Assembly: GCA_963813335.1 (NCBI GenBank)
Contig: CAWEYL010000003.1
Location: 320,001 to 384,000, forward strand
Source of the DNA: an uncultured Chloroflexia bacterium
GTDB taxonomy: Bacteria; Chloroflexota; Limnocylindria; Limnocylindrales; CSP1-4
DNA: 64,000 bases
Direction: 5' to 3'
Position numbers and translations under genes: made by a program. Within the stretch, counting starts at the first letter, position 1. Each line of letters begins with the position of its first letter. The notes beneath the pieces were generated by a model. That model made no database searches. It saw nothing but the letters and a program-made list of their open reading frames with translations, and was not told the DNA's origin. Below, in pieces: positions 37,596 through 50,830 of the stretch.

Positions 37596-37612
37596 TGGTC
37601 GGGGCGAGAGGA
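37596..37612 (-). repeat. tRNA-Pro 3'-end copy (att-like site 3)
   Basis: Exact TGGTCGGGGCGAGAGGA; left flank AGGCAGGTA resembles the tRNA flank AGGCAGGTT. Confidence 0.9.
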
Positions 37613-37806
37613 CTGGACCCGACAGAACCTACCTCATCGACGGTCGCCGACCGGGTCTCCGGCGTGCTGTGATCCATCCAGTGAAGCGACCAGCGTTCCC
37701 GAAATCGGGATGGATCCCGAGTGTCCCAAACGGTCATGACTCAGGACACAGCCGACCGCCGTCGACTGACTGGCCGCGAGACGCTGGATGGACACTGGTC
37801 GGCCTG

Positions 37807-38205
37807 TCAGCCGGCGAGGACGCTGTCCACGCGGATGACCGGCGGATGCTCGAAATGCTTCTTCACCGCACATTGCTCCGCCGACCTGACGACTGCGTCG
37901 GCGTACTTGGCCGGGAACCCTTCGGGCAGCTCGATCGTGACCTGCACGTCGTTGACCAGGTGGGTCGCCGGGTCGAGCTGCATGCGCTGGACCAGACGGA
38001 TGCCCTCCGGCGAGATCCCCCGCTGCCGGCAGAAGCCCAGGACGTAGATGCCCGCGCAGGTGCCGATCGTCGAGAGGAACGTCGCGAAGGGCGTCGGGGC
38101 AGAACTCTCGCCGCCGCCCGCAGCGGGCTGATCGGTGGGCACGACGAATCCGCCGAAGTGCGCGTCGACGCGCGCGCCGCCGGGGAAGTCGATGGTCATC
38201 TCCAT
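37807..38205 (-). CDS. OsmC-family protein
   Basis: TDQP, APTPF..FL..IGTCAG, QCAVKK (two Cys). Confidence 0.88.
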   Translation of the reverse strand: MEMTIDFPGGARVDAHFGGFVVPTDQPAAGGGESSAPTPFATFLSTIGTCAGIYVLGFCRQRGISPEGIRLVQRMQLDPATHLVNDVQVTIELPEGFPAKYADAVVRSAEQCAVKKHFEHPPVIRVDSVLAG

Positions 38206-38232
38206 GGCATGAAACCTCGTTCTGTGGATGTC

Positions 38233-38631
38233 CTATTCAAGGGGTGCGCCGGCCGCGGCGAGGTCCGCCATCCCACCGGCGTCGACGATGTCGCTGAAGC
38301 CAGCCGCGACCATCTGGTCAGCGGCGACAGCGCTCCGCCGGCCGGAGTGGCAGTAGACGAGATAGGCGGCCGACTGGTCGAGGGACGAGATCCGCGACGC
38401 GAAATCGGCGGCCTCGACGCTGATGTTCTGCGCCCCGGCGATATGGCCGGCCGCGTATTCCGCATGGGTGCGGACGTCGATGACGACCCGCGAGTCCAGC
38501 ATGCGCACCGCCTCGCTCGGGTCGACCTTCTGGATGGCGGACCGTGCCGAGGAACCGCCGCATGCGGCAATGGCGATCGCCGCCAGGGCGAGAAGGACGA
38601 CGAGGCCGAAACGAGTGGAACGGTGGTTCAT
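38233..38631 (-). CDS. Rhodanese-domain lipoprotein
   Basis: Lipobox IAAC; IDVRT..EY..GHI.GA; active loop YCHSGRRS. Confidence 0.9.
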   Translation of the reverse strand: MNHRSTRFGLVVLLALAAIAIAACGGSSARSAIQKVDPSEAVRMLDSRVVIDVRTHAEYAAGHIAGAQNISVEAADFASRISSLDQSAAYLVYCHSGRRSAVAADQMVAAGFSDIVDAGGMADLAAAGAPLE

Positions 38632-38759
38632 CCTGATGCTCCGAGTGTCGTGGTCCGTCGGACCTGTCGGTCGACGGGGGGTGGTCGGTTCCTGGGCGAG
38701 GCGACGGTCGTGCCCATCGGCGATGCCATCGACGTGATCGGGCGGCCGCACGAGTCCAT

Positions 38760-39290
38760 TCATCGGTAGCAGATGCCCCCTCTGGCGCGCATCCGAAATC
38801 GCCAGGCCAGCGTGCCGGCAAGGAGGATCAGCGAGACGGCTCCGATGACGGGCTGGAGGGGCGCGAAGACCGTCATGGCCCCGCTGGTCCCGAGCAGGAC
38901 CAGGGCGATCTTGTTGCACACCGGGCAACCGATCGCCAGGAACGCACCGAGGCTGGCGACGGCCCCGAGGGTCGTCCCGTCGCCACCTCCGGCGGCCGTG
39001 CTGGCAGCGAGGAGGAACGCGTCTGGCTCGGCCGGGACGATCGGGCCGGGCGCCGTGTAGGTCGCGCCCAGCAGGCCCATGAGCGGAGCCGACATCAGCC
39101 ATATGGCGATCGCGAACGGCTCGACGGGCACCTGCCGACCGAACACCGGGTTGGGGATGATGGCCGCGACCACGCCGAAGGCGACGACCGACGCGGCCGT
39201 CCAGAGCACGGCATGCACGGCGAAGCGCCGGTCGATGGTTGCGAGCACCGCAGCCGCTGGACAGCCGACCGGCAGTGAACGACCGATCAC
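38760..39290 (-). CDS. Membrane protein with GCPVCNK motif
   Basis: IIPNPVFGR, LAIGCPVCNKIAL..LG..GA, FAPLQP; GTG overlaps the DUF302 stop. Confidence 0.7.
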   Translation of the reverse strand: MIGRSLPVGCPAAAVLATIDRRFAVHAVLWTAASVVAFGVVAAIIPNPVFGRQVPVEPFAIAIWLMSAPLMGLLGATYTAPGPIVPAEPDAFLLAASTAAGGGDGTTLGAVASLGAFLAIGCPVCNKIALVLLGTSGAMTVFAPLQPVIGAVSLILLAGTLAWRFRMRARGGICYR

Positions 39291-39700
39291 GGCCGGTCCA
39301 GCGTCGCGATCACGCGTTGAAGGCGGGCCCTCGCCTCCTCGGCCACCAGCCGGATCGCCGGCAAGTCGACGATACCGAGGATGGCCATCGGATCCATCGC
39401 CTCGACGATCGTGCCCGTGCCGTCTTGGCGGAGGACGACGTTGCAGGGGAGCAGGGCGCCCACGGACGGATCGGCTTCGAGCGCCCGGTGAGCGAGCGGA
39501 GGGTTGCAGGCTCCGAGGATCACGTACGGTGGCCGCTCGATTCCCAGCTTGTCCCGCATCGTCGCCTTGATGTCGATCTCGGTCACGACGCCAAAGCCCT
39601 CGGCGCGAAGGGCGGCCTCGACGGCCGAGCGTGCGCTTGGGAGATCGCTCTTCATGCGCGTGCCGAAGGTGAAGCTGGTGGCGATTGCCATGGGGCTCAC
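39287..39700 (-). CDS. DUF302 domain protein
   Basis: EGFGVVTEID, YVILGACNP, LLPCNVV. Confidence 0.9.
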   Translation of the reverse strand: MSPMAIATSFTFGTRMKSDLPSARSAVEAALRAEGFGVVTEIDIKATMRDKLGIERPPYVILGACNPPLAHRALEADPSVGALLPCNVVLRQDGTGTIVEAMDPMAILGIVDLPAIRLVAEEARARLQRVIATLDRP

Positions 39701-40056
39701 CTCGCGCTGGCCCGGAGAGCAGGCCCATTCGGGCGACGTGCAGGCGGCAGGACCCGCTCCAGGCGGCGCGCCACGATCGCATGGATGATGTCGCAGGCAT
39801 CGGTGATCGCCGGCTCGGCGAGCCGGTAGTACACGGTCGTCCCGGTGCGGCGGCCATCGACGAGTCCCGCCGATCGCATGACGGCGAGGTGTTGGCTCAC
39901 GTTCGGCAGTGCCACGCCGATCGCGGCAGCCAATCCGCCGACGGATCGCTCGCCTCCCCGCAAGGTATCGAGAAGCATGAGCCGTTTCGGGTCCGTCAGG
40001 ACTTTGCAGAGCTCTGCGTGGAGGCGGTACGTCTCCGACTTGTCGTCAAGGTCCAC
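39697..40056 (-). CDS. ArsR/SmtB-family regulator
   Basis: CKVLTDPKRL, VSQHLAVMR.AGLV, VYY; GGAGG RBS before GTG 40056. Confidence 0.9.
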   Translation of the reverse strand: MDLDDKSETYRLHAELCKVLTDPKRLMLLDTLRGGERSVGGLAAAIGVALPNVSQHLAVMRSAGLVDGRRTGTTVYYRLAEPAITDACDIIHAIVARRLERVLPPARRPNGPALRASAR

Positions 40057-40112
40057 GGGATCGGGTGTCCTCCAGGAGGCGGTGCGTGGCGTAGTCCCTA
40101 CGGTACGCCTAT

Positions 40113-40128
40113 TTGCGTACTTGCGCAA
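40113..40128. promoter_or_regulatory. Putative ArsR operator
   Basis: TTGCG-TACTTG-CGCAA inverted repeat in an AT-rich patch upstream of arsR. Confidence 0.5.
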
Positions 40129-40287
40129 CTAACGTACTAATCGGTGCACCTGGAACCTCGCACGGACTCCGACTGGAATGAGCAACCGCGCGCGACTCGA
40201 CGGCGTCCCATCGACGCGGGCGCGACATGGGCGCACCAACCTAGGACCGCGATCGCGGGGACGTTCCCACGTGGCTCGCACAGAAAG

Positions 40288-40303
40288 TGGTCGGGGCGAG
40301 AGG
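40288..40303 (-). repeat. tRNA-Pro 3'-end copy (att-like site 4)
   Basis: Exact TGGTCGGGGCGAGAGG. Confidence 0.88.
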
Positions 40304-40383
40304 GATAGCCCCGCCACCAACGACCTTCCCATCACGATGCGCCTCGCCGAGCCGCCGGAGCCTTTCGACTGGCTCAAGAGCGC

Positions 40384-40639
40384 ATGACGAGACGGCCATC
40401 CCGCCGAGCGCGCCACCGACCGCGAGGTCCGGGTGGTCGAAGCCGTCCTGGTCGCCGGGTCGGAGAAGGCCGCCGCCTACCGCCTCGGCCTGTCGCACTC
40501 GACCGTCAAGCACCACCTGGCGAACGCACGGACGAAGGTGGGGGCGGAGACGACGGCGCAGCTCGTGTGGATCCTGGCGGAGCGGCTGCCCGAGGCCGAA
40601 GACCTGGCCCCACCGGACGACGAACAGCAGTCCGCATGA
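40384..40639 (+). CDS. Small stand-alone LuxR-like HTH protein (probable frameshift near 40409)
   Basis: TDREVRVV...AAAYRLGLSHSTVKHHLANARTKVG. Confidence 0.65.
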
Positions 40640-40795
40640 CGAGGTCGTAGGGCTACTCGCGCTACCCCGAGGACTCTTCTTGGCACCCAAGACCGTCGAG
40701 GCGGACATCGCCAGCATCTTCTCGGAGCTCGAGCTCCTGCCCGCGCCGGACGATCACCTCGGGGTGCTTGCCGTCCTTGCCGATCTTCGAGGGGC
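40640..40795 (+). pseudogene. Decayed C-terminal fragment of a NarL-type response regulator
   Basis: LFLAPKTVEADIASIFSELELLPAPDDHLGVLAVL resembles the KTVE.H..SIF.KL....DDH.RVLAVL tail; no receiver domain. Confidence 0.6.
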
Positions 40796-41062
40796 GGGTG
40801 ACGCCGTCCTTCATGGTCACGTCGACCGCACAGCTCGGCCCGTTTCGCTCGCGCGGCTCGTGCTGTGGGTCCTGCGTTCAGGCGGGCTCGCGCTCCGACT
40901 CCTCCGTCGTCTCGACGCCGCCCGTTCCTTCGGTGCTCCCATGCCACGTGGATCCTGGGAGGGGCCCACGACGGCGGCGCCCGCCGGCTGGCGTTGCCGG
41001 CGCGCGGTGAAGATGGTCGGGGACGGGATGGTCGACGATCTGCGTGCCCAGGAGCTACCTCG

Positions 41063-41636
41063 CTAGGGGTTGGCCACGCGCCACGATTGGCTCACGCCGA
41101 CCCCATTGGTGTCGCCCGCCCCGTGGTCGCCGGCCGAGAAGTACAGGGGCGCGCCGTTGTAGGTGAGCTGCACGGTCCCGTCTGGCCGCGTCACCTGGGC
41201 CAACTTGCCGGTGATCCCGCTGACACCCGCGGTGGCGCCGTCACTCAGGAGCAGCGGCGGCCAGGTCTTCGAGCAGCTCGCGTTGCAGGCGCTCGTCCCA
41301 GAACCGGGCACGTCCTTGTTGAAGACGTAGACGGTCAGGGGATCCTCGCCAGTCGTCGAATTCGGCCACGAGGTACGTGCCCACCCCGGCCTTCGTTGTT
41401 GACGACAGGGTCCACACCGCGACGTTGTTGCCCTCCCCGCCAGCTGCCGTGGGAGCGGCCGATGCCGGTGCGACCGTGGTGGTCGCCGCTGGCACCGACG
41501 AGGCGCCGTTCGACGCACAAGCGCTGAGCGTCAGAGCGAGGGCCGCGACGATCACGATGAGCGCTCGGGCATGCAGGCGTTGGTTTGGTGCGCGCCCGGT
41601 TCCGGATCCCTTCTCATGCTGTGCGTTCATCTTCAT
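41063..41636 (-). CDS. Lipoprotein with Y-x4-D repeats (COG4315-like), frameshift near 41345
   Basis: Lipobox LSAC; TVYVFNKD, SAC...C..TWPPL, RPDG..QLTYNG.PLYF..D...GD.NG. Confidence 0.8.
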
Positions 41637-41880
41637 GGTCCTTCCTCTCGGCTCCCCGCGCCGCTCTCCACGACGTGGATCTGGCCTAGTCAATTCGAGG
41701 TTGCTGCCGGCCCAGCCGACGCCGGGGCGCAGCGAACGCGTGCGTGGCACATTGCTGACATCACACCGCCGCCTTACAGGCGCACGGATCGTGGATCCGA
41801 AGCCCGGTCACTCAGCTCGCGGTCGTTCCCGTGCGCAGGACGACCGCGTCCGGGTTGCGAAGGGCGAGGCAGATCGGGCA

Positions 41881-42246
41881 CTACGCGAAGGCGACCGTCT
41901 TCGCGCCGGCCACGATCTCCTCGACCACCTTGGCCGCCCCGACGATCCTCGCGCCGTCGGCCACCTGCTCCTCGCCGATCCCGCGCGGCTTGGTGCAGGC
42001 GCCGCACAGCCAGACCTCGCCGCCGTTGCCGATGAACTGCGCATACAGGTCGGCCAGCACCGGCAGGCCCGGGGAGGCGATCCCGTCGAGGCCGCCGTGC
42101 GTTCCGAGCCAGACGGCGTCGATCGTGCACAAGACAACCGCGCTTTGTCCCGCGGTCGCCGCGATATTCGCCGCGACGAACGGGAGCGTCGCCCGCTCGG
42201 CCTCGTCCTTGCCGTGCGTGCAATTGAAGATCAGCATGTCGCTCAT
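41881..42246 (-). CDS. DsrE-family protein (module 1)
   Basis: THG.DE.ERATLPFVAAN.A, WLCGACTKPRGI. Confidence 0.85.
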   Translation of the reverse strand: MSDMLIFNCTHGKDEAERATLPFVAANIAATAGQSAVVLCTIDAVWLGTHGGLDGIASPGLPVLADLYAQFIGNGGEVWLCGACTKPRGIGEEQVADGARIVGAAKVVEEIVAGAKTVAFA

Positions 42247-42929
42247 CGGGTCCTCTCGATCGTGAACTGGTGGCGCCCGTCGCCGGTCGCCTCGGTGGAA
42301 CGGACCGTCTGGCCCAGCATCCGGGCCAGCGGCGGCAGGTCCTCCTTCGCCGCCGGGTCGCGCGCGACGACCACGAGGACGTCGCCTAGGGGGATGGCGC
42401 CGATGCGCCGGCGGAACTCGTCCGCCAGGCCGTCGGCGCAACCCATGGCCCCGGCGTCGAAGTGGTGGACGCCCGACTGTGCCGCGGCCCTGGGCGCGTC
42501 CCCCTCGCCAGCCGGCCGGAAGCCGGAGCAGAGGACGTCAAGCCGGGCGATGCGCCCGTCGGGGTCGACGTCGAGGTAGACCTGCTGCTCGACGAGCTCC
42601 CAGGCGCCGTCGGCGTAGGTGCGGAACTGGTACCGGGCCGAGGTGCGGTCGGCCATCCGCTCGGTGAGGACCTCCCGGACCTCGACGGCGTCCGCGTCGC
42701 CGAACCAGTCTGTGTACCTGGCGACGACCTCGGCGGCGCCGGTGACTGCCCCCGGGCCGCTCGGGATGAGGTATCGGAGGGCGGCGTCGCGAGCCAGGAG
42801 GTCGAACATGCCGCGGAAGTCGCGGGCCGCGACGGCCGCGACGAACTGCCGGGCTGCGGCGCGGGCTGGGTCGCCGCCGCTGGGTGCGGCCGGTGCGATT
42901 GTGGCCTGGCCGCCTGCCTGGGATGTCAA
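42243..42929 (-). CDS. SnoaL/NTF2-like domain fused to TusA/SirA sulfur-carrier-like domain (module 1)
   Basis: FV.AVAARDF..LLA.D, LCSGF, then FDAGAMGCADG...GDVL.V...DPAAKEDLP; probable TTG start after GGAG. Confidence 0.75.
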   Translation of the reverse strand: MTSQAGGQATIAPAAPSGGDPARAAARQFVAAVAARDFRGMFDLLARDAALRYLIPSGPGAVTGAAEVVARYTDWFGDADAVEVREVLTERMADRTSARYQFRTYADGAWELVEQQVYLDVDPDGRIARLDVLCSGFRPAGEGDAPRAAAQSGVHHFDAGAMGCADGLADEFRRRIGAIPLGDVLVVVARDPAAKEDLPPLARMLGQTVRSTEATGDGRHQFTIERTR

Positions 42930-43004
42930 CTGCGTTTCTCCCCTGCTGGTTGGTGCAGGGGGCACGCTACGGGCTGGGCAACCCCGTGTCGTCCGGCGTT
43001 CGCC

Positions 43005-44660
43005 CTACGAATTGAGCGGTTCGAGCGAGTCGAGCAGGCCCTGCTGCATCGCGAACAGCGTGGCCGTCGAGCGCGTGGAGGCGCCGATCTTGGAGTAGAT
43101 GCGCTCGATGTGGGTGCCCGCCGTCTTGGGCGTGATCCCCAGGAGCCCGGCCACCTGCTTGTTCGACGCGCCCCGGGCGATCAGCAGCAGCACTTCCACC
43201 TCGCGCGCGGTGAGCCCGCCTGGCCCCGTGTGGCGGCGGGCCCGCCGCTGCCCCGCGGCCTCGAGCACCGCGTCAACCGCATCGGCCGCGAGGCGCCCAG
43301 CCCGGACCTCGCCCCGGAGCTGGTCGGCGGCCGCCCTCTCGGTCAGGGCCTCGCGGTACGGTCGTGCCTCGCTCATGGCGGCGAAGGCATCCGCGGCGGC
43401 GAGGATGCGGCCTGTGGCTGGGATCGCCGAGCCGGCGAGCCCGCGGTGGTACCCGGAGCCGTCGAGGCGTTCGTTCGCGAGCGCGGCGATCGCGCCGATC
43501 CGCCCGAGGGCGGGCGGTCGGGAGAGCATCCGGTGCGTGTAGTAGGCGTGCATCCGCATCCGCTCTGCCTCGCTCTTGGACAGCGGGCCGGGCTTCTCGA
43601 GGATCGTGGCCGGCAGGCCGTTCATCCCCAGGTCGTGAAGCAGTCCGGCCCGGCGGAGCGTTGCGGCGTCAGCGGGCGGCAGGCCAGAGAGCTCGGCCGC
43701 CAGCGCCGCCAGCGCCGCCACCCTGCGCGAGTGTCCGCCGCGCGAGGACGACCGGAGGTCGGTGAAGTCCGCCAGGGCCTCCATGGCCGTGTCGATCTCC
43801 GCTTCCGGCAGGCGACGCTGCAGGCCGACCTGGTCCGCGATCTCGTCGTTCCAGTCGCCGACCTTGTCGAGGCCAGCGAGGACGGCCTCGGCGTCGGCTA
43901 AGAAGGCGTCCACCACGTCGGGGGCGAACTGCGTGCCCCGCCACTCCTTGGCCAGCTTGACGGCGCCGGGACGGCCGTGGATGCGGTGCAGGACCTCTAC
44001 GCTGTCGGCGACGTGGAAGAGGCGCACGGCTGGTGCGATCTGCTCCCCGCCGACCCCCTCGGGCACGCCCTTTCCGTCCCACCGCGTGAACACCTGCAGG
44101 AGCTGGTGCGCGACGCCGGCGCCCAACCCGAGGCGCTCGGCCATCCGGGCGGTGGAGATGCAGTGCGACATGAAGCCGCGGGCGACCGGGGCCCCACCGG
44201 TGGACACGAGCGCGACGCCCAGCCTGAGCCGCTGGACGAGGGGCGCGCCGGCTCCCACCTTGCGCAGCGAGTAGGCCATCATCGGCAGGCCGGCCCGGTC
44301 CACGCCGAAGCTGTCACGCCGAAAGGCGATGTCGTCGCCGAACCAGTGCGCCACCTCGGGCGTGTCCGCGACGCAGCCCACCCAGGCAAGCGTCACGACG
44401 TAGTAGAGATCCTGGCGGTCGGCCGCTCCGAGGCCCATCCGCGCGGCGAGGCGGTCGGCGATCAGCCACGAGCGGAGGGCGTGCTCCATGGGCAGGCCGA
44501 GGCCAAGGTCGGTGGCCAGCGAGAAGGCGGCCACGAGGTCGGCCGAGCGGATCCCCGGATCGAGCTCGAGGTCGGGCGAATGGGGCGCAGCGGGTCGCAC
44601 TGCTGCAGTATCCCCCACCGACAGCGCCGGGCCGACGAGCGTCGGCCGGGCCCTGTTCAC
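43005..44660 (-). CDS. HD-GYP-like domain + LuxR HTH regulator
   Basis: SLATDLGLG, RWDGKGVP, LLHDLG, ERLDGSGYH, LTAREVEVL HTH; start may be 44600. Confidence 0.9.
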   Translation of the reverse strand: MNRARPTLVGPALSVGDTAAVRPAAPHSPDLELDPGIRSADLVAAFSLATDLGLGLPMEHALRSWLIADRLAARMGLGAADRQDLYYVVTLAWVGCVADTPEVAHWFGDDIAFRRDSFGVDRAGLPMMAYSLRKVGAGAPLVQRLRLGVALVSTGGAPVARGFMSHCISTARMAERLGLGAGVAHQLLQVFTRWDGKGVPEGVGGEQIAPAVRLFHVADSVEVLHRIHGRPGAVKLAKEWRGTQFAPDVVDAFLADAEAVLAGLDKVGDWNDEIADQVGLQRRLPEAEIDTAMEALADFTDLRSSSRGGHSRRVAALAALAAELSGLPPADAATLRRAGLLHDLGMNGLPATILEKPGPLSKSEAERMRMHAYYTHRMLSRPPALGRIGAIAALANERLDGSGYHRGLAGSAIPATGRILAAADAFAAMSEARPYREALTERAAADQLRGEVRAGRLAADAVDAVLEAAGQRRARRHTGPGGLTAREVEVLLLIARGASNKQVAGLLGITPKTAGTHIERIYSKIGASTRSTATLFAMQQGLLDSLEPLNS

Positions 44661-44820
44661 CAGCCGGCCGGCGCCAGATCGACACTCAAGGCGAGCGGAT
44701 GCCTGTGCCAGGTCCTGCGCTCAGCCGGGCGCCGGCCCGGGACGCGCACCAGCAGGCCCGGCCGGAGGGCTCGGTGGGCCGCAGCCTATTTGCCTTCGTC
44801 CGCGTGCCAGAAGGTCAGTC

Positions 44821-44837
44821 TGGTCGGGGCGAGAGGA
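44821..44837 (-). repeat. tRNA-Pro 3'-end copy (att-like site 5)
   Basis: Exact TGGTCGGGGCGAGAGGA; the following about 27 nt are nearly identical to those after 37612. Confidence 0.9.
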
Positions 44838-44927
44838 CTCGGCCCGACGGAACCTACCTCATCGCTGCGAACGCGTTGAGGCTCTCTCGAGCGGGAGAAG
44901 GTCTCGAACTCCACTTGCCCCTTGATC

Positions 44928-47858
44928 TCAGCCCGTCGTCGCCGGGGTAAGCAGCCCCAGGGTCGCCAGACGTTGGACGGCCTCCGCACGCGTCTGACAG
45001 TCGAGCTTCAGGAGCGCGCTGCCGACGTGCATCTCGACGGTGCGCGGGCTGATGAAGAGCGACTGGCCCATCTGACGGCTCGTCATGCCCCGGGCGACGA
45101 GGCGCACGACCTCGAGCTCGCGCCGAGTCAGGCCATGGTCCGCGAGCCTGCGTGCCTCGCGTGGCCCCAGCCGACGCTCGACGGACTCGCCGATCATCGC
45201 GAGGTCGGCGGCGATCGCCCGCCCCAGTGGGATCGCGCCGAGGCGGCGGGCCGTGCGGGCCGCGGCCACGAGCAGCGCGACGCCCTCGTCGCGGCGGCCG
45301 GCGCGAACGACCGCGATCCCGGCGCGGCGCCCGATCTCGGCCCGGTCCAGCGGCAGGTCGCGGGAGGAGACCGCTTCGAGGGCGCTGACGAGATGCTGCG
45401 CCGCGGTTTCGACTTCCCCGTCGATCCAGGCTGCGGCGCCGAGCGTCGCGCCGAGAGCCGCTACCGCCTCGGGCTGGGCAGTCTGGGCGGCGATCCGGGC
45501 GAGGGCTTCGGCGCAGGCCCGGACGCCAGCGCCGTCCCCGAGATCTCCGTAGACGGTGGCCGCCCAGCGCAGCGCGGGCACGATGTAGTGGCGCTCCTCC
45601 GTCCGGCTCCACCGCTCGCGCAGTCGGGCACAGCGCTCCAGCACGGCGGCCTCGTCACCGTCGAGTCGGTCGCACAGGGCTAGCCCCCACGTCGACGTCA
45701 GGTCCATGGCCGCGAGCTCGATGTGGCGGGCGAGCTGGACCGATGCCTCCAGATGTGGGCGCGCTCGCGTCGCGCTTCCGCGTAGCGCGGCGATGATGCC
45801 GACGATGCCTTCGGCGACGGCGCGGGCATGGAGCGTCGCGTCCCCCGAGCGGATCACGTCGCGCCCCATCTGCTCGGCGCGCGACCATTGCCCGGTCTGC
45901 CAGAGAACCATCGTCATGCACGCTACGCACAGTTGCGCCGATGACCCGAGCGCCTGGGTCCGGCAGTACTCGGCGCCTTCGACGTAGGCCGACCGCGCCG
46001 GATCGTAGTGACCGCCGTGCTCGAGCGAGTCGGCGAGCCGCTGGTACAGCTCGGCGGCCGCCGCGACGTGGCCCCCGTCGAGCGCCAGCGACAGACCCTC
46101 GCGGACAAGGGCGAGACCTTCCTCGAACCGGCCGAGTCGCGCCCGCACATTGCCGTCGAGTCCGGTCGCCCGGGCCACCAGGTCGACCCGCCCGGCGGCA
46201 GCAGCCTCCGTCCGCGTCACCGTCAGGAGCTCCTGTGCGGCGCTGAAGCTCCCAGCGGAACGGAGATGGGCGGCAGCCGCGAGGCGCTCGGTCGCCGCTT
46301 CTGCCGGGAGACCGGCCGCGGCGAAGGCGTCAGCGGCGGCGAGGCGGGCGTCGATCGCTCGCGCCCACCGGCCGAGGACTTCGAGGCAGCGGGCCCGGCG
46401 CGCATGCGCCTGCGCGGCGAGGTCGCCCCGGCCCTCCTCAGCCCGCTCGGCTGCCGCCCGCTCCCACGCCCGGGAGGCATCGGCTGGCGAGCCCGCCAGC
46501 TCCGCGGACTCGGCCAGCCGCTCGGTGATGGCGACCCGGGACGCGAGCGTGCCGCGGTCCTCCTCGAGCGCGCGGCGGTAACCGTCCGCGGCATCACGAT
46601 AGGCGTGGACGCGACGCGACGCATCGGCGCTCGAGAGGAGCCAGGGGATGGCCTCCTGAGGCTCGCCGCCGCGGAGCCAGTGCTCGGCGATGACCAGCGG
46701 CTCGGCTTCCCGATCCGCGAGCAACGCCGCGGCGTGACGGTGTCGCGAGCGGCGCTCGGGAGCCGGCAGCTCGTCGACCAGCACCTCGCGAACGAGCGCG
46801 TGGCGGAACCCCACGACCCCGTCCCGATCGGTGAGGATGCCGCACTCGAGACCCTCCCTCGACCACGCACCGGCGTCCGGGACGAGCTCGTCGATGAGCG
46901 ACCCGTCGATCGGATCGCCCAGCAGCGCCGCCGTCACGAGCGCCCGACGGGCCGCGGGGCTCAGGCCGTCCGTGCGCGCGAGGATACTGTCGCGCAGGGT
47001 GTCGGGGATCGGCAGGTCGGCCCGGGCGAGCGTGGCCCGGTCGCCCGAGACGGATACGGCGTCATCTCGGAGCAGGGCAGCGGCGAGCTCCTCCACGAAG
47101 AGCGGAAGGCCCTGACTCCGATCGACGAGCCGCCCGGCCAGTGTGTCGTCCGGCCGGGCGCCCAGCACCTGACTTGCCAGCTCGATGGTCGCCTCGGCAT
47201 CCAACGCGCCGAGCTCCACCTCCTCGAACCGTCCGATCCTGCGGAGTTCCACCCGCAGGCGCCGGACCCCACTGCCGCGCGGGATCTCGTCGGTGCGGTA
47301 TGCGCCGATCGCCAGAAGGGGCTCGTGGGCGGCTCGCGCGGCGATCACCGCGAGGGCCTCCAGGGTGGCATGGTCGGCATCCTGGAGATCCTCCACGACG
47401 AGCACGAGCGGGCGGCGTCGGGCGAGCTCGACGAGGACCTCGCATACGACCTCGAGGACATCAGCTCGGCCCTCGGCGATGACCGGCGACGCAGGCTCGA
47501 GGACCCGCGACGGGACTTCCGTCGATGGATCCAGGCCCAGCAGGATGCGGGCCGCGTCGCCGCCAGGCCTGCCACGCCCGACCCGCTCGATGACGGCTGG
47601 ACCGATCTCGGGCCAGGCGGGGTGGAAGCGGATCGCCGCCACGAGAGGCCCCAGCGGCATGGCGCCGGCACGACCCGCCGTGCCGCCCAGGACCACCAGG
47701 CCTCGCCGGTCGAGGGCGTGCTCGATCAGCGCCGTCTTGCCGATCCCCGCCTCACCGGCGACCAGGAGCACGCCACCGCGGCGCCGCCGAGCGTCAGTGA
47801 CCGCGCGACGAACGGTGGCGAGCTCTCGATCTCGACCGACCAGCGTGGAGGACCGCAT
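44928..47858 (-). CDS. AAA ATPase-TPR-LuxR (LAL-type) regulator
   Basis: LVGRDREL, GEAGIGKT, VVEDLQDAD, GLPLFVEEL, FRHAL, C-terminal LTRRELEV HTH. Confidence 0.93.
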   Translation of the reverse strand: MRSSTLVGRDRELATVRRAVTDARRRRGGVLLVAGEAGIGKTALIEHALDRRGLVVLGGTAGRAGAMPLGPLVAAIRFHPAWPEIGPAVIERVGRGRPGGDAARILLGLDPSTEVPSRVLEPASPVIAEGRADVLEVVCEVLVELARRRPLVLVVEDLQDADHATLEALAVIAARAAHEPLLAIGAYRTDEIPRGSGVRRLRVELRRIGRFEEVELGALDAEATIELASQVLGARPDDTLAGRLVDRSQGLPLFVEELAAALLRDDAVSVSGDRATLARADLPIPDTLRDSILARTDGLSPAARRALVTAALLGDPIDGSLIDELVPDAGAWSREGLECGILTDRDGVVGFRHALVREVLVDELPAPERRSRHRHAAALLADREAEPLVIAEHWLRGGEPQEAIPWLLSSADASRRVHAYRDAADGYRRALEEDRGTLASRVAITERLAESAELAGSPADASRAWERAAAERAEEGRGDLAAQAHARRARCLEVLGRWARAIDARLAAADAFAAAGLPAEAATERLAAAAHLRSAGSFSAAQELLTVTRTEAAAAGRVDLVARATGLDGNVRARLGRFEEGLALVREGLSLALDGGHVAAAAELYQRLADSLEHGGHYDPARSAYVEGAEYCRTQALGSSAQLCVACMTMVLWQTGQWSRAEQMGRDVIRSGDATLHARAVAEGIVGIIAALRGSATRARPHLEASVQLARHIELAAMDLTSTWGLALCDRLDGDEAAVLERCARLRERWSRTEERHYIVPALRWAATVYGDLGDGAGVRACAEALARIAAQTAQPEAVAALGATLGAAAWIDGEVETAAQHLVSALEAVSSRDLPLDRAEIGRRAGIAVVRAGRRDEGVALLVAAARTARRLGAIPLGRAIAADLAMIGESVERRLGPREARRLADHGLTRRELEVVRLVARGMTSRQMGQSLFISPRTVEMHVGSALLKLDCQTRAEAVQRLATLGLLTPATTG

Positions 47859-47864
47859 CCTGGG

Positions 47865-48224
47865 TCAGAAGGTTAACGAAGCGGCACCCGATGCGAGGAG
47901 CTCCACGACCTGCGCCGCGCTGACGATGGACGCGCCGTCGACCAGGTCGTCCGCGGTGATCGCGCGTGGCTTCGTGCACGCGCCGCAGGCCCAGATCCGA
48001 CCGCCGGCCGCAACGAACTGGGCCATGACATCCGAAAGCGCCGGGAGCGTATCGGCCACGACGCCGTCGGCACGGCCCTTCACGGCGAGCCAGGCTCCTT
48101 CGATGGTCAGAAGCACGATCGCATCCTGATCGGCGGTCGCCGCGACGTTCGCCACGACGAAGGGGAGGGTCGCGCGCTCCGGGTCTTCCGGTCCGTGCGT
48201 CGCGTTGACGATGATCGTAGCCAT
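47865..48224 (-). CDS. DsrE-family protein (module 2)
   Basis: THGPEDPERATLPFVVANVA, WACGACTKPR. Confidence 0.85.
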   Translation of the reverse strand: MATIIVNATHGPEDPERATLPFVVANVAATADQDAIVLLTIEGAWLAVKGRADGVVADTLPALSDVMAQFVAAGGRIWACGACTKPRAITADDLVDGASIVSAAQVVELLASGAASLTF

Positions 48225-48931
48225 CAGTTCGTGCCTCCTGAGGTCGATTCGTTTCCCGGCGCAGCAGCGCGTCGGATGAAGTAGCGGGCAGCGGCCTCGC
48301 CGGCCTGCTCGCGGCCGACCACGTGGTGGCCGGTCATGCGCCCCCATGAACGGAGGCCGTCCTCCGCCGAGGGGTCGTCGGTCAGGATCTCGAGCGTCTG
48401 GCCCGGCTCGAGGGCAAGGACCTCCGCCCGGATCGTCGGGGTCAGCGTGGCGCAGCTCAGGCCGAGTCCATCGAGCCGACGATCGGCGCGAACGCCAGCC
48501 GATGGCGCGGTGGCGATCGGACCAGCCTCTTCGACGATCGCGAAGCCCGAGCAGACCAGGGCGACGTCCGTCAGGCGGCCGTCGGCCACCCGTGCCACGA
48601 CGCGCTGCTCGACGACCCGGCGGATGCCCTCCTCCCAGAGCCGGATGCGGAAGCCAACCAGGAGCCGGTCGACGATCGAGTCCACGCTCGAGGCCAGCAG
48701 CTCCCGGTCCGAGGTCCCTTCGAACCAGCCCTCGATGACGGCGCGCGTGGCCGCGGCGGTCGATTCCTGGCGGATCGTCCGCGGGGTCAGCGCCCGGAAC
48801 CGGACATCCGGCGCAAGAAGCTGCTCGAACGCGTCGAAGTCCCCGGCGACGACGTCGTCGATGAGCGTCTGGCCGAGCCGCTCGGCGGCCGGGTCGTGTG
48901 GGATCGCGCGGTCGGGCGCGGAAGCGGTCAT
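48224..48931 (-). CDS. SnoaL/NTF2-TusA fusion (module 2)
   Basis: GGAGG RBS; LLAPDVRFRALTP, VCSGF, then LDGLGLSCATL...GQTLEILTDDPSA..GL.SW. Confidence 0.8.
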   Translation of the reverse strand: MTASAPDRAIPHDPAAERLGQTLIDDVVAGDFDAFEQLLAPDVRFRALTPRTIRQESTAAATRAVIEGWFEGTSDRELLASSVDSIVDRLLVGFRIRLWEEGIRRVVEQRVVARVADGRLTDVALVCSGFAIVEEAGPIATAPSAGVRADRRLDGLGLSCATLTPTIRAEVLALEPGQTLEILTDDPSAEDGLRSWGRMTGHHVVGREQAGEAAARYFIRRAAAPGNESTSGGTN

Positions 48932-49109
48932 CTCGGTACCTCCGGGCGTGCGGTCGAGGTCGACTCGACGGTATGTCGCGCGCACGACCCGAACAACCGG
49001 AGCACTACGGGGTTTCCGGTGCGAGGGCGCGCCCGACAGCTGCCGTCCGTCGCGTGACTCGGCGGCCGTGGGAGTAGCATCACCGCCTCGCGGGAGGAGG
49101 TCGTTGTCG

Positions 49110-49976
49110 ATGTCGACATCGGAGGTTCGGGTCTTCGACCCAGTCGCATACAAGAGCACCACCCGCGAGCAATGGCAGACGACCGCCGAGGCGTGGCACC
49201 GGTGGGGGCCGACGCTGGAGGCCTGGCTTGGCCATGCGACCCAGGCGATGCTCGACATGGCTGGCATCAAGGGCGGTGCTCGGGTCCTGGACGTCGCCGC
49301 GGGTGCGGGCGGGCAGACGATCGCGGCGGCCCAACGGGTCGGGCCGAGCGGGACTGTTCTCGCCACCGACATCTCCCCCGTGATCCTCGAATTTGCCCAG
49401 GCTGAGGCCTCGACGGCCGGACTGTCGAACGTGACGACCCGAGTGATGGACGGCGAGGACCTCGAGGTGGAGCCCGGATCGTTCGATGCCGTGATCTCGC
49501 GCCTCGGACTGACCTACTTCCCCGACCAGCAAGAGGCGCTCGGGAACATGCGCCGCGCATTGCGCGACGGCGGACGGGTCGCGGCCATCGTCTACTCGAC
49601 GCCCGAACGCAATCAGTTCAACTCGATCCCGATGTCGATCATCAGGCGACGTGCTGCGCTGCCGCCGCTGCTCCCAGGACAGCCCGGGCCGTTCAGCCTC
49701 GGAGCGCCGGGCGTGGTCGCGGCCGCCTTAGAGACCGCCGGCTTTCACGACGTCGAGACCCGCCTGGTCGACGCGCCACTTCGGCTGACGTCGGCCGCCG
49801 AGTGTGTTCTGCTCGAACGGGAGTCGTTCGGAGCGCTGCGCCAGATGCTCTCCGGCTTGTCCGAGTCCGAACGCAACGAGGCTTGGGTCGAGATCGAAAC
49901 GGCTTTGGCCACGTTCGAGGGTGCGAACGGTTTTGTCGGGCCGTGCCAGCTGCTTGTCGCCGCAGGGATCAGGTAG
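49110..49976 (+). CDS. Class I SAM-dependent methyltransferase (UbiE-like)
   Basis: VLDVAAGAG, ATDIS, FDAVISR, PGPFSL; GGAGG RBS. Confidence 0.9.
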   Translation: MSTSEVRVFDPVAYKSTTREQWQTTAEAWHRWGPTLEAWLGHATQAMLDMAGIKGGARVLDVAAGAGGQTIAAAQRVGPSGTVLATDISPVILEFAQAEASTAGLSNVTTRVMDGEDLEVEPGSFDAVISRLGLTYFPDQQEALGNMRRALRDGGRVAAIVYSTPERNQFNSIPMSIIRRRAALPPLLPGQPGPFSLGAPGVVAAALETAGFHDVETRLVDAPLRLTSAAECVLLERESFGALRQMLSGLSESERNEAWVEIETALATFEGANGFVGPCQLLVAAGIR

Positions 49977-50130
49977 CTCGGCAACATCCACCGCCATCGG
50001 CTTGGACGGGTCGGCCAGCACGCAGCGACGAGCGGCATGGCCCGGACCTGAAGGTATCCTCCTCGCGCCCACCCCGCGCAAGAACGCGCTATGGTTGGTG
50101 CACGCGGAGGAGGCCCACCACAAGTTGCGA

Positions 50131-50403
50131 ATGGCGGATCTCCAGCCCGGCTGGGCGGTGGTCGGGAATGATGGAAAGCGGGTCGGCGCCGTGCAGCGGG
50201 TCGGCCAGAACTACGTGCTCACCTCGATCGACGGGCGGGCCGGTGAGATCTACATTCCCGCTTCTGCGATCGCCAACGTCGACCACGACGTCATCCATCT
50301 CTCGATGCCGCAGGGAGACGTCGCACAGATGGGATGGGGGCAGCCGCCGCGGGACGACGACGTCCCGACCACGTCCGAGTCCGACCTCCACCGACATGTC
50401 TGA
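50131..50403 (+). CDS. Small PRC-barrel/DUF2171-like protein
   Basis: GW.V.G.DG.RVG.V and IYIPASAI pattern. Confidence 0.6.
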   Translation: MADLQPGWAVVGNDGKRVGAVQRVGQNYVLTSIDGRAGEIYIPASAIANVDHDVIHLSMPQGDVAQMGWGQPPRDDDVPTTSESDLHRHV

Positions 50404-50420
50404 CTCGGCGTCGACCGCGA

Positions 50421-50741
50421 TCAGCGGTGAAGCGTCGGCCGGTAGGTGAGCTCCTGGGTGTGGCCGTCGAGGGTCCTGCCCGCGATCAACTCGAGGTCGA
50501 AGTCGGCTGCACCTTCGAAGATCGGGCGCGCTCCGGTCTGGCCTGTGACCACGGGGAAGATGGTGACCTGCACGCGGTCGACCAAGCCGGCTGCCAAGAG
50601 CGCTCGGTTCATCGACAGGCTGCCGTGCGCGCGTAGAGGCACGTCGGACTCTTCCTTGAGCCGGGCGACCACATCGACGGCGTCGCCGCGCACCAAGGTC
50701 GCGTCCGGCCAATCGAGTGGCTCATCGAGCGTCCTCGAGAC
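50421..50741 (-). pseudogene. 5'-truncated RibD-C/dihydrofolate-reductase-family gene
   Basis: SRTLDEPLDW...GSLS..RALL.AGLVDR...FPV..G; N-terminal half absent; abuts the tRNA 3' end. Confidence 0.75.
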
Positions 50742-50751
50742 GAGAGGCAGG

Positions 50752-50830
<79 letters not shown>

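Follow-up and report, generated by a model that had tools for sequence, protein, structure and literature searches.

Two SnoaL-TusA fusion and DsrE modules on tRNA-Pro islets of an uncultured Chloroflexia bacterium: candidates for a mobile sulfur-relay cassette with an exchangeable Cys-NTF2 domain

What could be the function of a protein in which an NTF2/SnoaL domain is joined to a TusA-like domain, and which is encoded twice, each time beside a DsrE gene, in one stretch of bacterial DNA? The question is raised by a window of 64,000 nucleotides (nt) from an uncultured Chloroflexia bacterium (GenBank assembly GCA_963813335.1, contig CAWEYL010000003.1, positions 320,001 to 384,000), the window being the whole stretch that was analysed. 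An earlier sequence-only reading had picked out here a coupled pair of SnoaL-TusA fusion and DsrE protein in two divergent copies, and gene coordinates, Pfam matches and structure models agree that the pair is real. It is suggested here, tentatively and as a reading that falls slightly short of probable, that each module is an inducible, self-regulated mobile cassette which shuttles sulfane sulfur, or some comparable group bound to a thiol, from one protein cysteine to another and carries an exchangeable end-piece, a cysteine-bearing NTF2 (Cys-NTF2) domain. A relay between DsrE and TusA at the core of the cassette we consider probable; that the SnoaL cysteine takes part in it is a possibility just on the doubtful side of balance.

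Both modules lie on the minus strand, module 1 consisting of an HD/LuxR regulator, fusion F1 and DsrE protein D1, and module 2 of fusion F2, DsrE protein D2 and an AAA-LuxR regulator. F1 (42243..42929, 228 amino acids, aa) combines a Cys-NTF2/SnoaL domain, with Cys134 in a CSGF motif, and a TusA-fold domain with Cys164 in GCADG; its start codon is TTG, and the relative in genome G570 has ATG at the equivalent place. D1 (41881..42246), which has a CxxC motif (Cys81, Cys84), overlaps the F1 stop. F2 (48224..48931, 235 aa) has Cys127 in its Cys-NTF2/SnoaL domain and Cys160, within SCATL, in its TusA-fold domain, and D2 (47865..48224) has Cys80 and Cys83 in its CxxC. The motifs first read from the letters, CSGF, GCADG/SCATL, ERATLPF and CGACTKPR, were all found in the window proteins. 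Identity is 29% between F1 and F2 and 53% between D1 and D2. Either fusion contains two cysteines and no more, one in each domain, and this pair is invariant in 37/37 and 87/87 aligned proteins. The only two Cys-NTF2 domains of the source genome, and its only two matches to PF02635 (DsrE), are those of the modules. The labels of homologues suggest Limnocylindria-like Chloroflexota.

The case for a DsrE-TusA core draws on folds, gene order and a modelled complex. F2 passes the Pfam cut-offs for TusA (35.3 bits; cut-off 28.6) and SnoaL_2 (27.0; cut-off 27), F1 lies just below both (26.7 and 26.9), and both DsrE proteins pass PF02635 (40.3 and 56 bits; cut-off 22.7). AlphaFold models of the two fusions have a mean predicted local distance difference test (pLDDT) of 89.6 and 94.3 and a predicted template modelling score (pTM) of 0.62 and 0.64. 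The C-terminal domain has the TusA fold in both, as had been proposed, matching E. coli TusA (3lvj_C) at Z 14.2 (root-mean-square deviation, rmsd, 1.8, 77 aligned) and Z 12.3 (2.1, 75), and the TusA cysteine of the fusions aligns with the CPEP cysteine of that protein. Both cysteines of the DsrE CxxC are invariant (53/53), and the first aligns with the conserved cysteine of 3mc3, the nearest solved relative (E 3.7e-12), which is named DsrE3A in PMC11094781. In 5/5 distant DsrE relatives inspected this first position is TGA, matching the DsrE-like UxxC selenoprotein listed in PMC13188914. The expected co-occurrence of fusion and DsrE elsewhere was borne out: a DsrE gene lies at most 700 nt from the fusion in 50/50 dereplicated loci (73 loci, reduced to 53 by dereplication at 90%, of which three with less than 150 nt of downstream DNA were dropped), and DsrE follows TusA-linked Cys-NTF2 in 15/15 cases in genome samples found by the SnoaL profile alone. 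When F1 was modelled with three D1 copies, an assumed number, the score, given for the partner only, was 0.75, and that of the best of three controls 0.00; the 0.75 mark is reached by 116/157 solved complexes and 2/215 mismatched pairs, rates that hold only roughly here. The runs agree in at least 96% of contacts with a partner pLDDT of at least 81, and the interface involves the TusA domain only, naming the TusA cysteine (146 as submitted, F1 Cys164) and D1 Cys81. The model supports docking of a DsrE trimer to the TusA domain. No solved TusA-DsrE complex was found in the structure matches, and one may exist. Transfer of sulfur from DsrE3 to TusA has been shown for other pairs (PMC4175335, PMC11094781).

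The N-terminal domain has the NTF2 cone fold in both models, matching ketosteroid isomerase (6uae) at Z 15.9 (rmsd 2.2, 118 aligned) and Z 14.8 (2.3, 118). By profile search it is a member of a large, undescribed family of cysteine-bearing NTF2 domains, with 1541 clusters (at 50% identity) at E <=0.001 and 918 at E <=1e-10; 1371 proteins match F1. No NCBIfam model reaches its cut-off for the domain, and the clusters obtained from ESM Atlas had no names or automatic ones. Of the best 150 family members, 147 keep the Cys, 150 the Trp, 149 the Pro and 147 the Gln, so that the CSGF cysteine is conserved, as had been claimed. The catalytic residues of ketosteroid isomerase are Tyr14, Asp38 and Asp99. 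Cys-NTF2 domains have instead Phe/Leu at the first position (Tyr in 9/150), Ala/Gly at the second and Ala or a hydrophobic residue at the Asp99 equivalent, the register of which was obtained by extending the alignment without gaps, and at both acid positions Asp is missing from the six most frequent residues. To judge by these residues, and by the near-invariant Cys, Trp, Gln and Pro that the family has instead, the domain is not a ketosteroid isomerase. In the same register, which is an ungapped extension and not one of coordinates, Cys corresponds to Phe116 of ketosteroid isomerase, Gln to Pro97 and Trp to Ser58, positions that we take to be near the pocket mouth, and the cysteine may thus sit at the mouth of a hydrophobic pocket together with an invariant Trp and Gln. 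A second, resolving cysteine specific to solo SnoaL proteins was considered and rejected, since profile position 101 is Cys in 24/62 solo and 11/43 fused forms. No selenocysteine (Sec) was seen at the SnoaL cysteine, the flagged stops lying elsewhere, and five probe genomes yielded no Cys-NTF2. A cysteine at the same place is kept by a more distant NTF2 family, one that ends in CGGRW (L083:1450-1863), and in P0161 a Cys-NTF2 domain is fused behind an FAD-dependent monooxygenase-like domain.

How did this domain come to be joined to TusA? A tree of TusA domains (78 rows, one of them out of frame, and 74 columns, with a bootstrap that had not settled completely) rejects the SnoaL-fused ones as a single clade (approximately unbiased test, p 0.00013), which means that the pairing arose, or was swapped, several times. 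The TusA domain of F1 groups with both TusA types of a TusA-DsrE-TusA-MetE-like operon (94/96 support) and that of F2 with the CATL types; a CPY motif occurs in one fusion. Fused TusA domains are of several lineages and motifs (CATL, GCxxG, GCxEGP and CPY), with SnoaL always N-terminal and DsrE beside. A count of fusion events from the SnoaL-domain tree was given up because its resolution was too poor (9/102 branches starred). The SnoaL domain is optional, and has been joined repeatedly to different TusA lineages.

Several observations weigh against the module as a sulfur relay, or against a place for SnoaL within it. The CPxP motif, characteristic of TusA (PMC11094781), is absent from both fusions, which have SCATL and GCADG instead, and the complex model may have passed through its similarity to TusA/DsrE pairs and not because F1 and D1 bind. 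Since the modelled D1-F1 interface names no SnoaL residue and the monomer pTM is only 0.62 and 0.64, a Cys-Cys contact inside the fusion is no more than possible. Among 36 Cys-NTF2 copies drawn from three genome samples (41 matches outside the source genome, minus four from unpublished genomes and one weak CGGRW-type relative), 21 stand without TusA or DsrE within 1.5 kb, the remaining 15 being fused or adjacent to TusA; 14 of the 21 genomes with standalone copies (62-99% complete where given) have no DsrE-profile match at E 1e-10. At other cassette-type DsrE loci, TusA was without SnoaL in 13/13 inspected in one class sample, and L179 lacks SnoaL even though its TusA nests among fused ones. 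A sulfur-handling neighbour of any kind is present at only 14/53 fusion loci, and at 6/22 of those with 3 kb on both sides, counts that are not independent because many loci are related soil metagenome contigs; the window modules have no such gene inside their islets. The Cys relay that had been proposed therefore survives in part. A hand-off between DsrE and TusA is backed by the complex model and by sulfane-sulfur-handling neighbours, but SnoaL as an obligate part is not supported, given the many standalone copies, the frequency of SnoaL-less cassettes and an interface that leaves the domain out.

The standalone copies also bear on another explanation, in which Cys-NTF2 is an independent cysteine-dependent enzyme or binder, fused to TusA only as a frequent co-cargo of LuxR-type cassettes, and the relay is just DsrE-TusA. 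The contexts of the 21 copies are varied, 118 of the top 150 representatives of the family have neither a TusA domain nor a long tail (some perhaps cut by contig ends), the pocket residues are identical in solo and fused forms, and Cys-NTF2 is also a passenger behind hppD, all of which would fit such a view. It accounts less well for TusA partners of several lineages and motifs with SnoaL invariably at the N-terminus and beside DsrE, or for a fusion to an ArsM-like enzyme that also fuses to TusA, as random cargo is not expected to repeat its partners, and we regard it as rather unlikely. With respect to hppD, a solo Cys-NTF2 follows this gene in five genomes; a role in tyrosine catabolism was considered and rejected, as hppD is found in 150/301 class genomes and only 2/30 hppD loci (three of the 30 from unpublished genomes) carry Cys-NTF2.

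In the reading that we prefer, that of a mobile cassette moving sulfane sulfur, a DsrE trimer would dock to the TusA domain, as modelled, and the first cysteine of the DsrE CxxC would exchange sulfur with the TusA cysteine, by analogy with characterised DsrE3/TusA pairs. The Cys-NTF2 domain would be an exchangeable end-piece on a flexible linker, and its cysteine would most likely accept sulfur from, or donate it to, a small hydrophobic compound, for instance an organic polysulfide, a thiol or an electrophile. The likeliest purpose would be detoxification, the sink in fuller clusters being perhaps a persulfide dioxygenase/rhodanese, OsmC or a Sec/Cys methyltransferase, and the cassettes probably help soil bacteria to handle reactive sulfur. 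A wider proposal, speculative and in our view improbable, is that the CSGF family comprises undescribed NTF2-fold sulfur(seleno)transferases whose pocket-mouth cysteine puts sulfane sulfur on hydrophobic small molecules or takes it off them. Together with TusA, a CxxC-DsrE and a single-Sec ArsM-like or MetE-like methyltransferase, they would then make up a pathway, widespread in soil, in which organic polysulfides or thiols lose sulfur that is methylated to volatile products.

Genes next to the fusion in the 53 loci include ArsR-rhodanese (9), an ArsM-like methyltransferase (7), metallo-beta-lactamase (MBL)/persulfide-dioxygenase-like genes (5), major facilitator superfamily (MFS) transporters (5) and OsmC (2); recurrent-neighbour clusters were those present in at least 3 of 160 loci. 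Adjoining module 2 in the window is a divergent class I S-adenosylmethionine (SAM) methyltransferase gene (49110..49976, plus strand). It is where it had been reported, but it is a local neighbour and not a conserved member, a full-length counterpart being found in 0/12 loci with a module-2-type fusion. Its identification as the ArsM-like enzyme was rejected, only the SAM-binding part being common (39% over 124 aa). The suggested S-methylation would accordingly not proceed via this enzyme, and is plausible via the ArsM-like Sec/Cys methyltransferase of relatives; H2S/methanethiol methyltransferases are a known detoxification route in Actinomycetota (PMC12904073). The ArsM-like neighbour has TGA at a conserved Cys in 15/18 readable copies (20 examined, not dereplicated) and scores 220 bits against an ArsM cut-off of 263. 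ArsM binds arsenic through the pair Cys174-Cys224 (PMC6138428); in the neighbour, 19/19 readable copies have SNG, with Gly in place of Cys174, and Cys or TGA at the second position. The absence of Cys174 suggests that it is probably not an ordinary arsenite methyltransferase. One fusion of this enzyme to Cys-NTF2 (L120) and one to TusA (L031) were seen.

The arsenic- and selenium-related features of these neighbours raise the possibility of a thiol-disulfide or metalloid chain, in which the DsrE CxxC would be a dithiol reductant, or the three cysteines would relay Se, As or Hg species, the ArsM-like selenoprotein being recycled or supplied in this way. Such a chain would be consistent with the invariance of both CxxC cysteines, with the TGA codons just described, which SelA tracks in four genomes (present in three with a TGA-type ArsM-like gene, not found in one with Cys), and with the precedent of ArsM-AhpD selenoprotein fusions (PMC13188914). 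SelA is also present in 6/6 fusion-bearing genomes of the class sample, but these are not independent, coming from three genera in which it is near-universal (14/15, 12/12 and 8/9), and it is found in only 1/13 genomes with a SnoaL-less TusA-DsrE cassette (both tallies include unpublished genomes); the core needs no selenium. With Gly, moreover, at the arsenic-binding Cys174 position and no ars or mer operon recurring among the neighbours (at least 3 of 160 loci), we think this explanation quite unlikely. As separate observations, L255 and L258 have a Sec-type DsrE (UKGC) divergent from an ArsM-like methyltransferase, followed in L255 by an OsmC-like gene and an HD-LuxR gene. In L085 (1031-1495) a presumably AhpD/CMD-like gene, in which TGA stands in frame within CxxU, lies directly upstream of a solo Cys-NTF2 gene, and in L012, L013, L024, L106 and L135 a SCO4226-like (DUF4242) nickel-binding gene adjoins the fusion or its split form.

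TusA and DsrE-type proteins can also serve biosynthesis, as E. coli TusA-TusBCD does, and sulfur from a cysteine desulfurase might travel via TusA and DsrE to a pocket-bound substrate of the NTF2 domain and yield a thio-metabolite. Occasional P450, FAD oxidoreductase and SRPBCC neighbours could be taken as signs of such insertion. We consider it very unlikely: no cysteine desulfurase, ThiF/MoeB or biosynthetic core gene recurs at the threshold of 3 of 160 loci, and the minimal cassette is a regulator, a fusion and a DsrE.

With an HD- or AAA-LuxR gene in 41/53 dereplicated fusion loci, the regulators are part of the cassette, and in the window each module adjoins a large LuxR-HTH regulator, as had been noted. 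That of module 1 (43005..44600, minus strand; start uncertain, 44600 or 44660) had been called HD-GYP. HD is kept, but the sequence reads ANERLDGSGYHRG, which is a degenerate version of the motif HHExxDGxGYP. The AAA-ATPase/TPR/LuxR-HTH regulator of module 2 (44928..47858, minus strand) lies directly behind D2, and in 12/12 module-2-type loci its position behind DsrE is alike, with one gene inserted in L006. Both fusions are preceded by conserved boxes on the minus strand. A promoter- or operator-like element that overlaps the regulator stop codon (42964..43007) reads TAGGGCGAAC...GACGAC, 18 nt, TAGCGT; F1-type loci have TAGGG-N-GAC at the regulator stop, a pattern that matches once in the genome. 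Upstream of F2 is an operator-like box, AAACCCCGTAGT (49004..49015), the core of which, AACCCCGTAGT, is present in 12/12 aligned F2-type upstream regions; conservation among relatives starts at the box, and its pattern has a single match in the source genome. Both boxes may be operators.

The mobility of the cassette is indicated by its setting. The genome contains exactly four copies of the 16-nt 3' end of tRNA-Pro(cgg), all within the window and on the minus strand: in the tRNA itself, the integration site (50754..50830), between the modules (44821..44836), at the far boundary of the module-1 islet (40288..40303) and at that of a third islet (37596..37611). These copies place the modules on separate, neighbouring repeat-bounded islets, as the sequence-only reading had it. 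The duplicated tRNA 3' end of a tRNA islet is thus present at the boundaries, and no integrase was called in the window. The source genome (81% complete) has three tyrosine recombinases, all on other contigs (PF00589 only on C1 and C6), and PF00239 was not found in it. Window positions 40463-44798 are 98.3% identical over 4336 nt to G570, a genome of another genus, and the identity ends 23 nt from the repeat, which indicates recent transfer. Relatives have their modules in repeat arrays of a similar kind (G452, G410) or next to other tRNAs, and the distribution is patchy, with 12/301 genomes of the phylum, 17/301 of the class and 16/401 of Actinomycetota, the phylum of G301 (tallies by SnoaL profile, with 10-14 candidates scored per genome and the unpublished G173, G272, G432 and G693 included). 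Near-identical contigs are present in four soil RNA libraries; intergenic DNA is covered too, so this shows presence and not expression. A cultured host is Nocardioides sp. JS614 (plasmid pNOCA01, NOCA_RS00945 and RS00940; protein pair WP_011751597/WP_011751596); a link to alkene/coenzyme M metabolism was considered and rejected, as no such genes are annotated within 20 kb of the module.

The surroundings of the modules offered some further observations. An array of small islets, every one of which ends in a degenerate repeat of the 3' half of the tRNA, follows tRNA-Pro(cgg) in the window (37596-50830) and is seen in L218, L219, L222 and L223, with two to four tRNA repeats per 16-20 kb in three relatives. 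The third islet (37807-40128) contains genes for an ArsR regulator, DUF302, a membrane protein, a rhodanese lipoprotein and OsmC, and forms a second cassette with a sulfur/redox theme; its regulator is BigR-like (65.7 bits against a cut-off of 155). A RibD_C (dihydrofolate reductase-like) fragment adjoining the tRNA (50421-50789) is apparently truncated, while the JS614 plasmid has an intact member after the module.

How, then, does the cassette compare with known systems? That the SnoaL-TusA fusion had not been recognised as characterised agrees with the literature: no paper was found with both 'SnoaL' and 'TusA' as whole words, most subscription papers being outside the coverage, and nothing on the fusion was among the matches listed for related literature. 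With the E. coli TusA/SirA family (YhhP, YedF, YeeD/TsuB) the fusions have in common the fold (3lvj_C as above; 8j4c_B at Z 13.2, rmsd 1.4, 79 aligned) and the cysteine position, but they score far below the NCBIfam cut-offs (TusA 35.3 and 16.4 against 78; YedF 16.4 against 79) and have CATL or GCADG as motif. Sulfane-sulfur detoxification clusters of relatives (ArsR-rhodanese, MBL persulfide dioxygenase-rhodanese, MFS), which we take to be cst/BigR-like, contain the same TusA and DsrE lineages in L021, L028, L030, L131, L154 and L172, whereas the window modules lack the genes of such clusters and have HD- or AAA-LuxR regulators. The TusA-DsrE-TusA-MetE-like operon of Planctomycetota and Dehalococcoidia (L033-L071), which was not found in print, has the same DsrE subfamily but neither Cys-NTF2 nor a LuxR regulator, and a MetE-like enzyme in 19/20 loci (partly classed by that gene); a gene near it in L068, L069 and L071 is presumably SelB-like, going by sequence features.

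The DsrE3/TusA pairs of sHdr sulfur oxidisers (Metallosphaera DsrE3A-TusA, PMC4175335; Hyphomicrobium DsrE3C-TusA, PMC11094781) are alike in their adjacent tusA and dsrE genes and equivalent cysteine positions. DsrE3A, however, has a Cys-X7-Cys motif (PMC4175335) where the DsrE of the cassette has CxxC, and the cassette differs further in a TusA without CPxP that is fused to NTF2, in LuxR-type one-component regulators and in mobile islets. Genes for hdr, dsr, lipoate or dihydrolipoamide dehydrogenase functions, in comparison with the DsrE3 subgroups, were not seen in 3 or more of the 160 loci, which are short, whole genomes not having been searched for sHdr. TusA/DsrE relays have been characterised mainly in tRNA thiolation and lithotrophic sulfur oxidation, and here a mobile, separately regulated version appears in soil Chloroflexota and Actinomycetota. 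If the interpretation is true, NTF2 proteins, whose fold is known for acid-base catalysis, would have a pocket cysteine that acts as catalyst or sulfur carrier, a chemistry new to them. The system, being small, with clear mutational targets and a cultured strain in JS614, is directly testable. By analogy we infer that the cassette may work like a DsrE3/TusA relay, from which it nonetheless departs in the motifs CPxP and Cys-X7-Cys.

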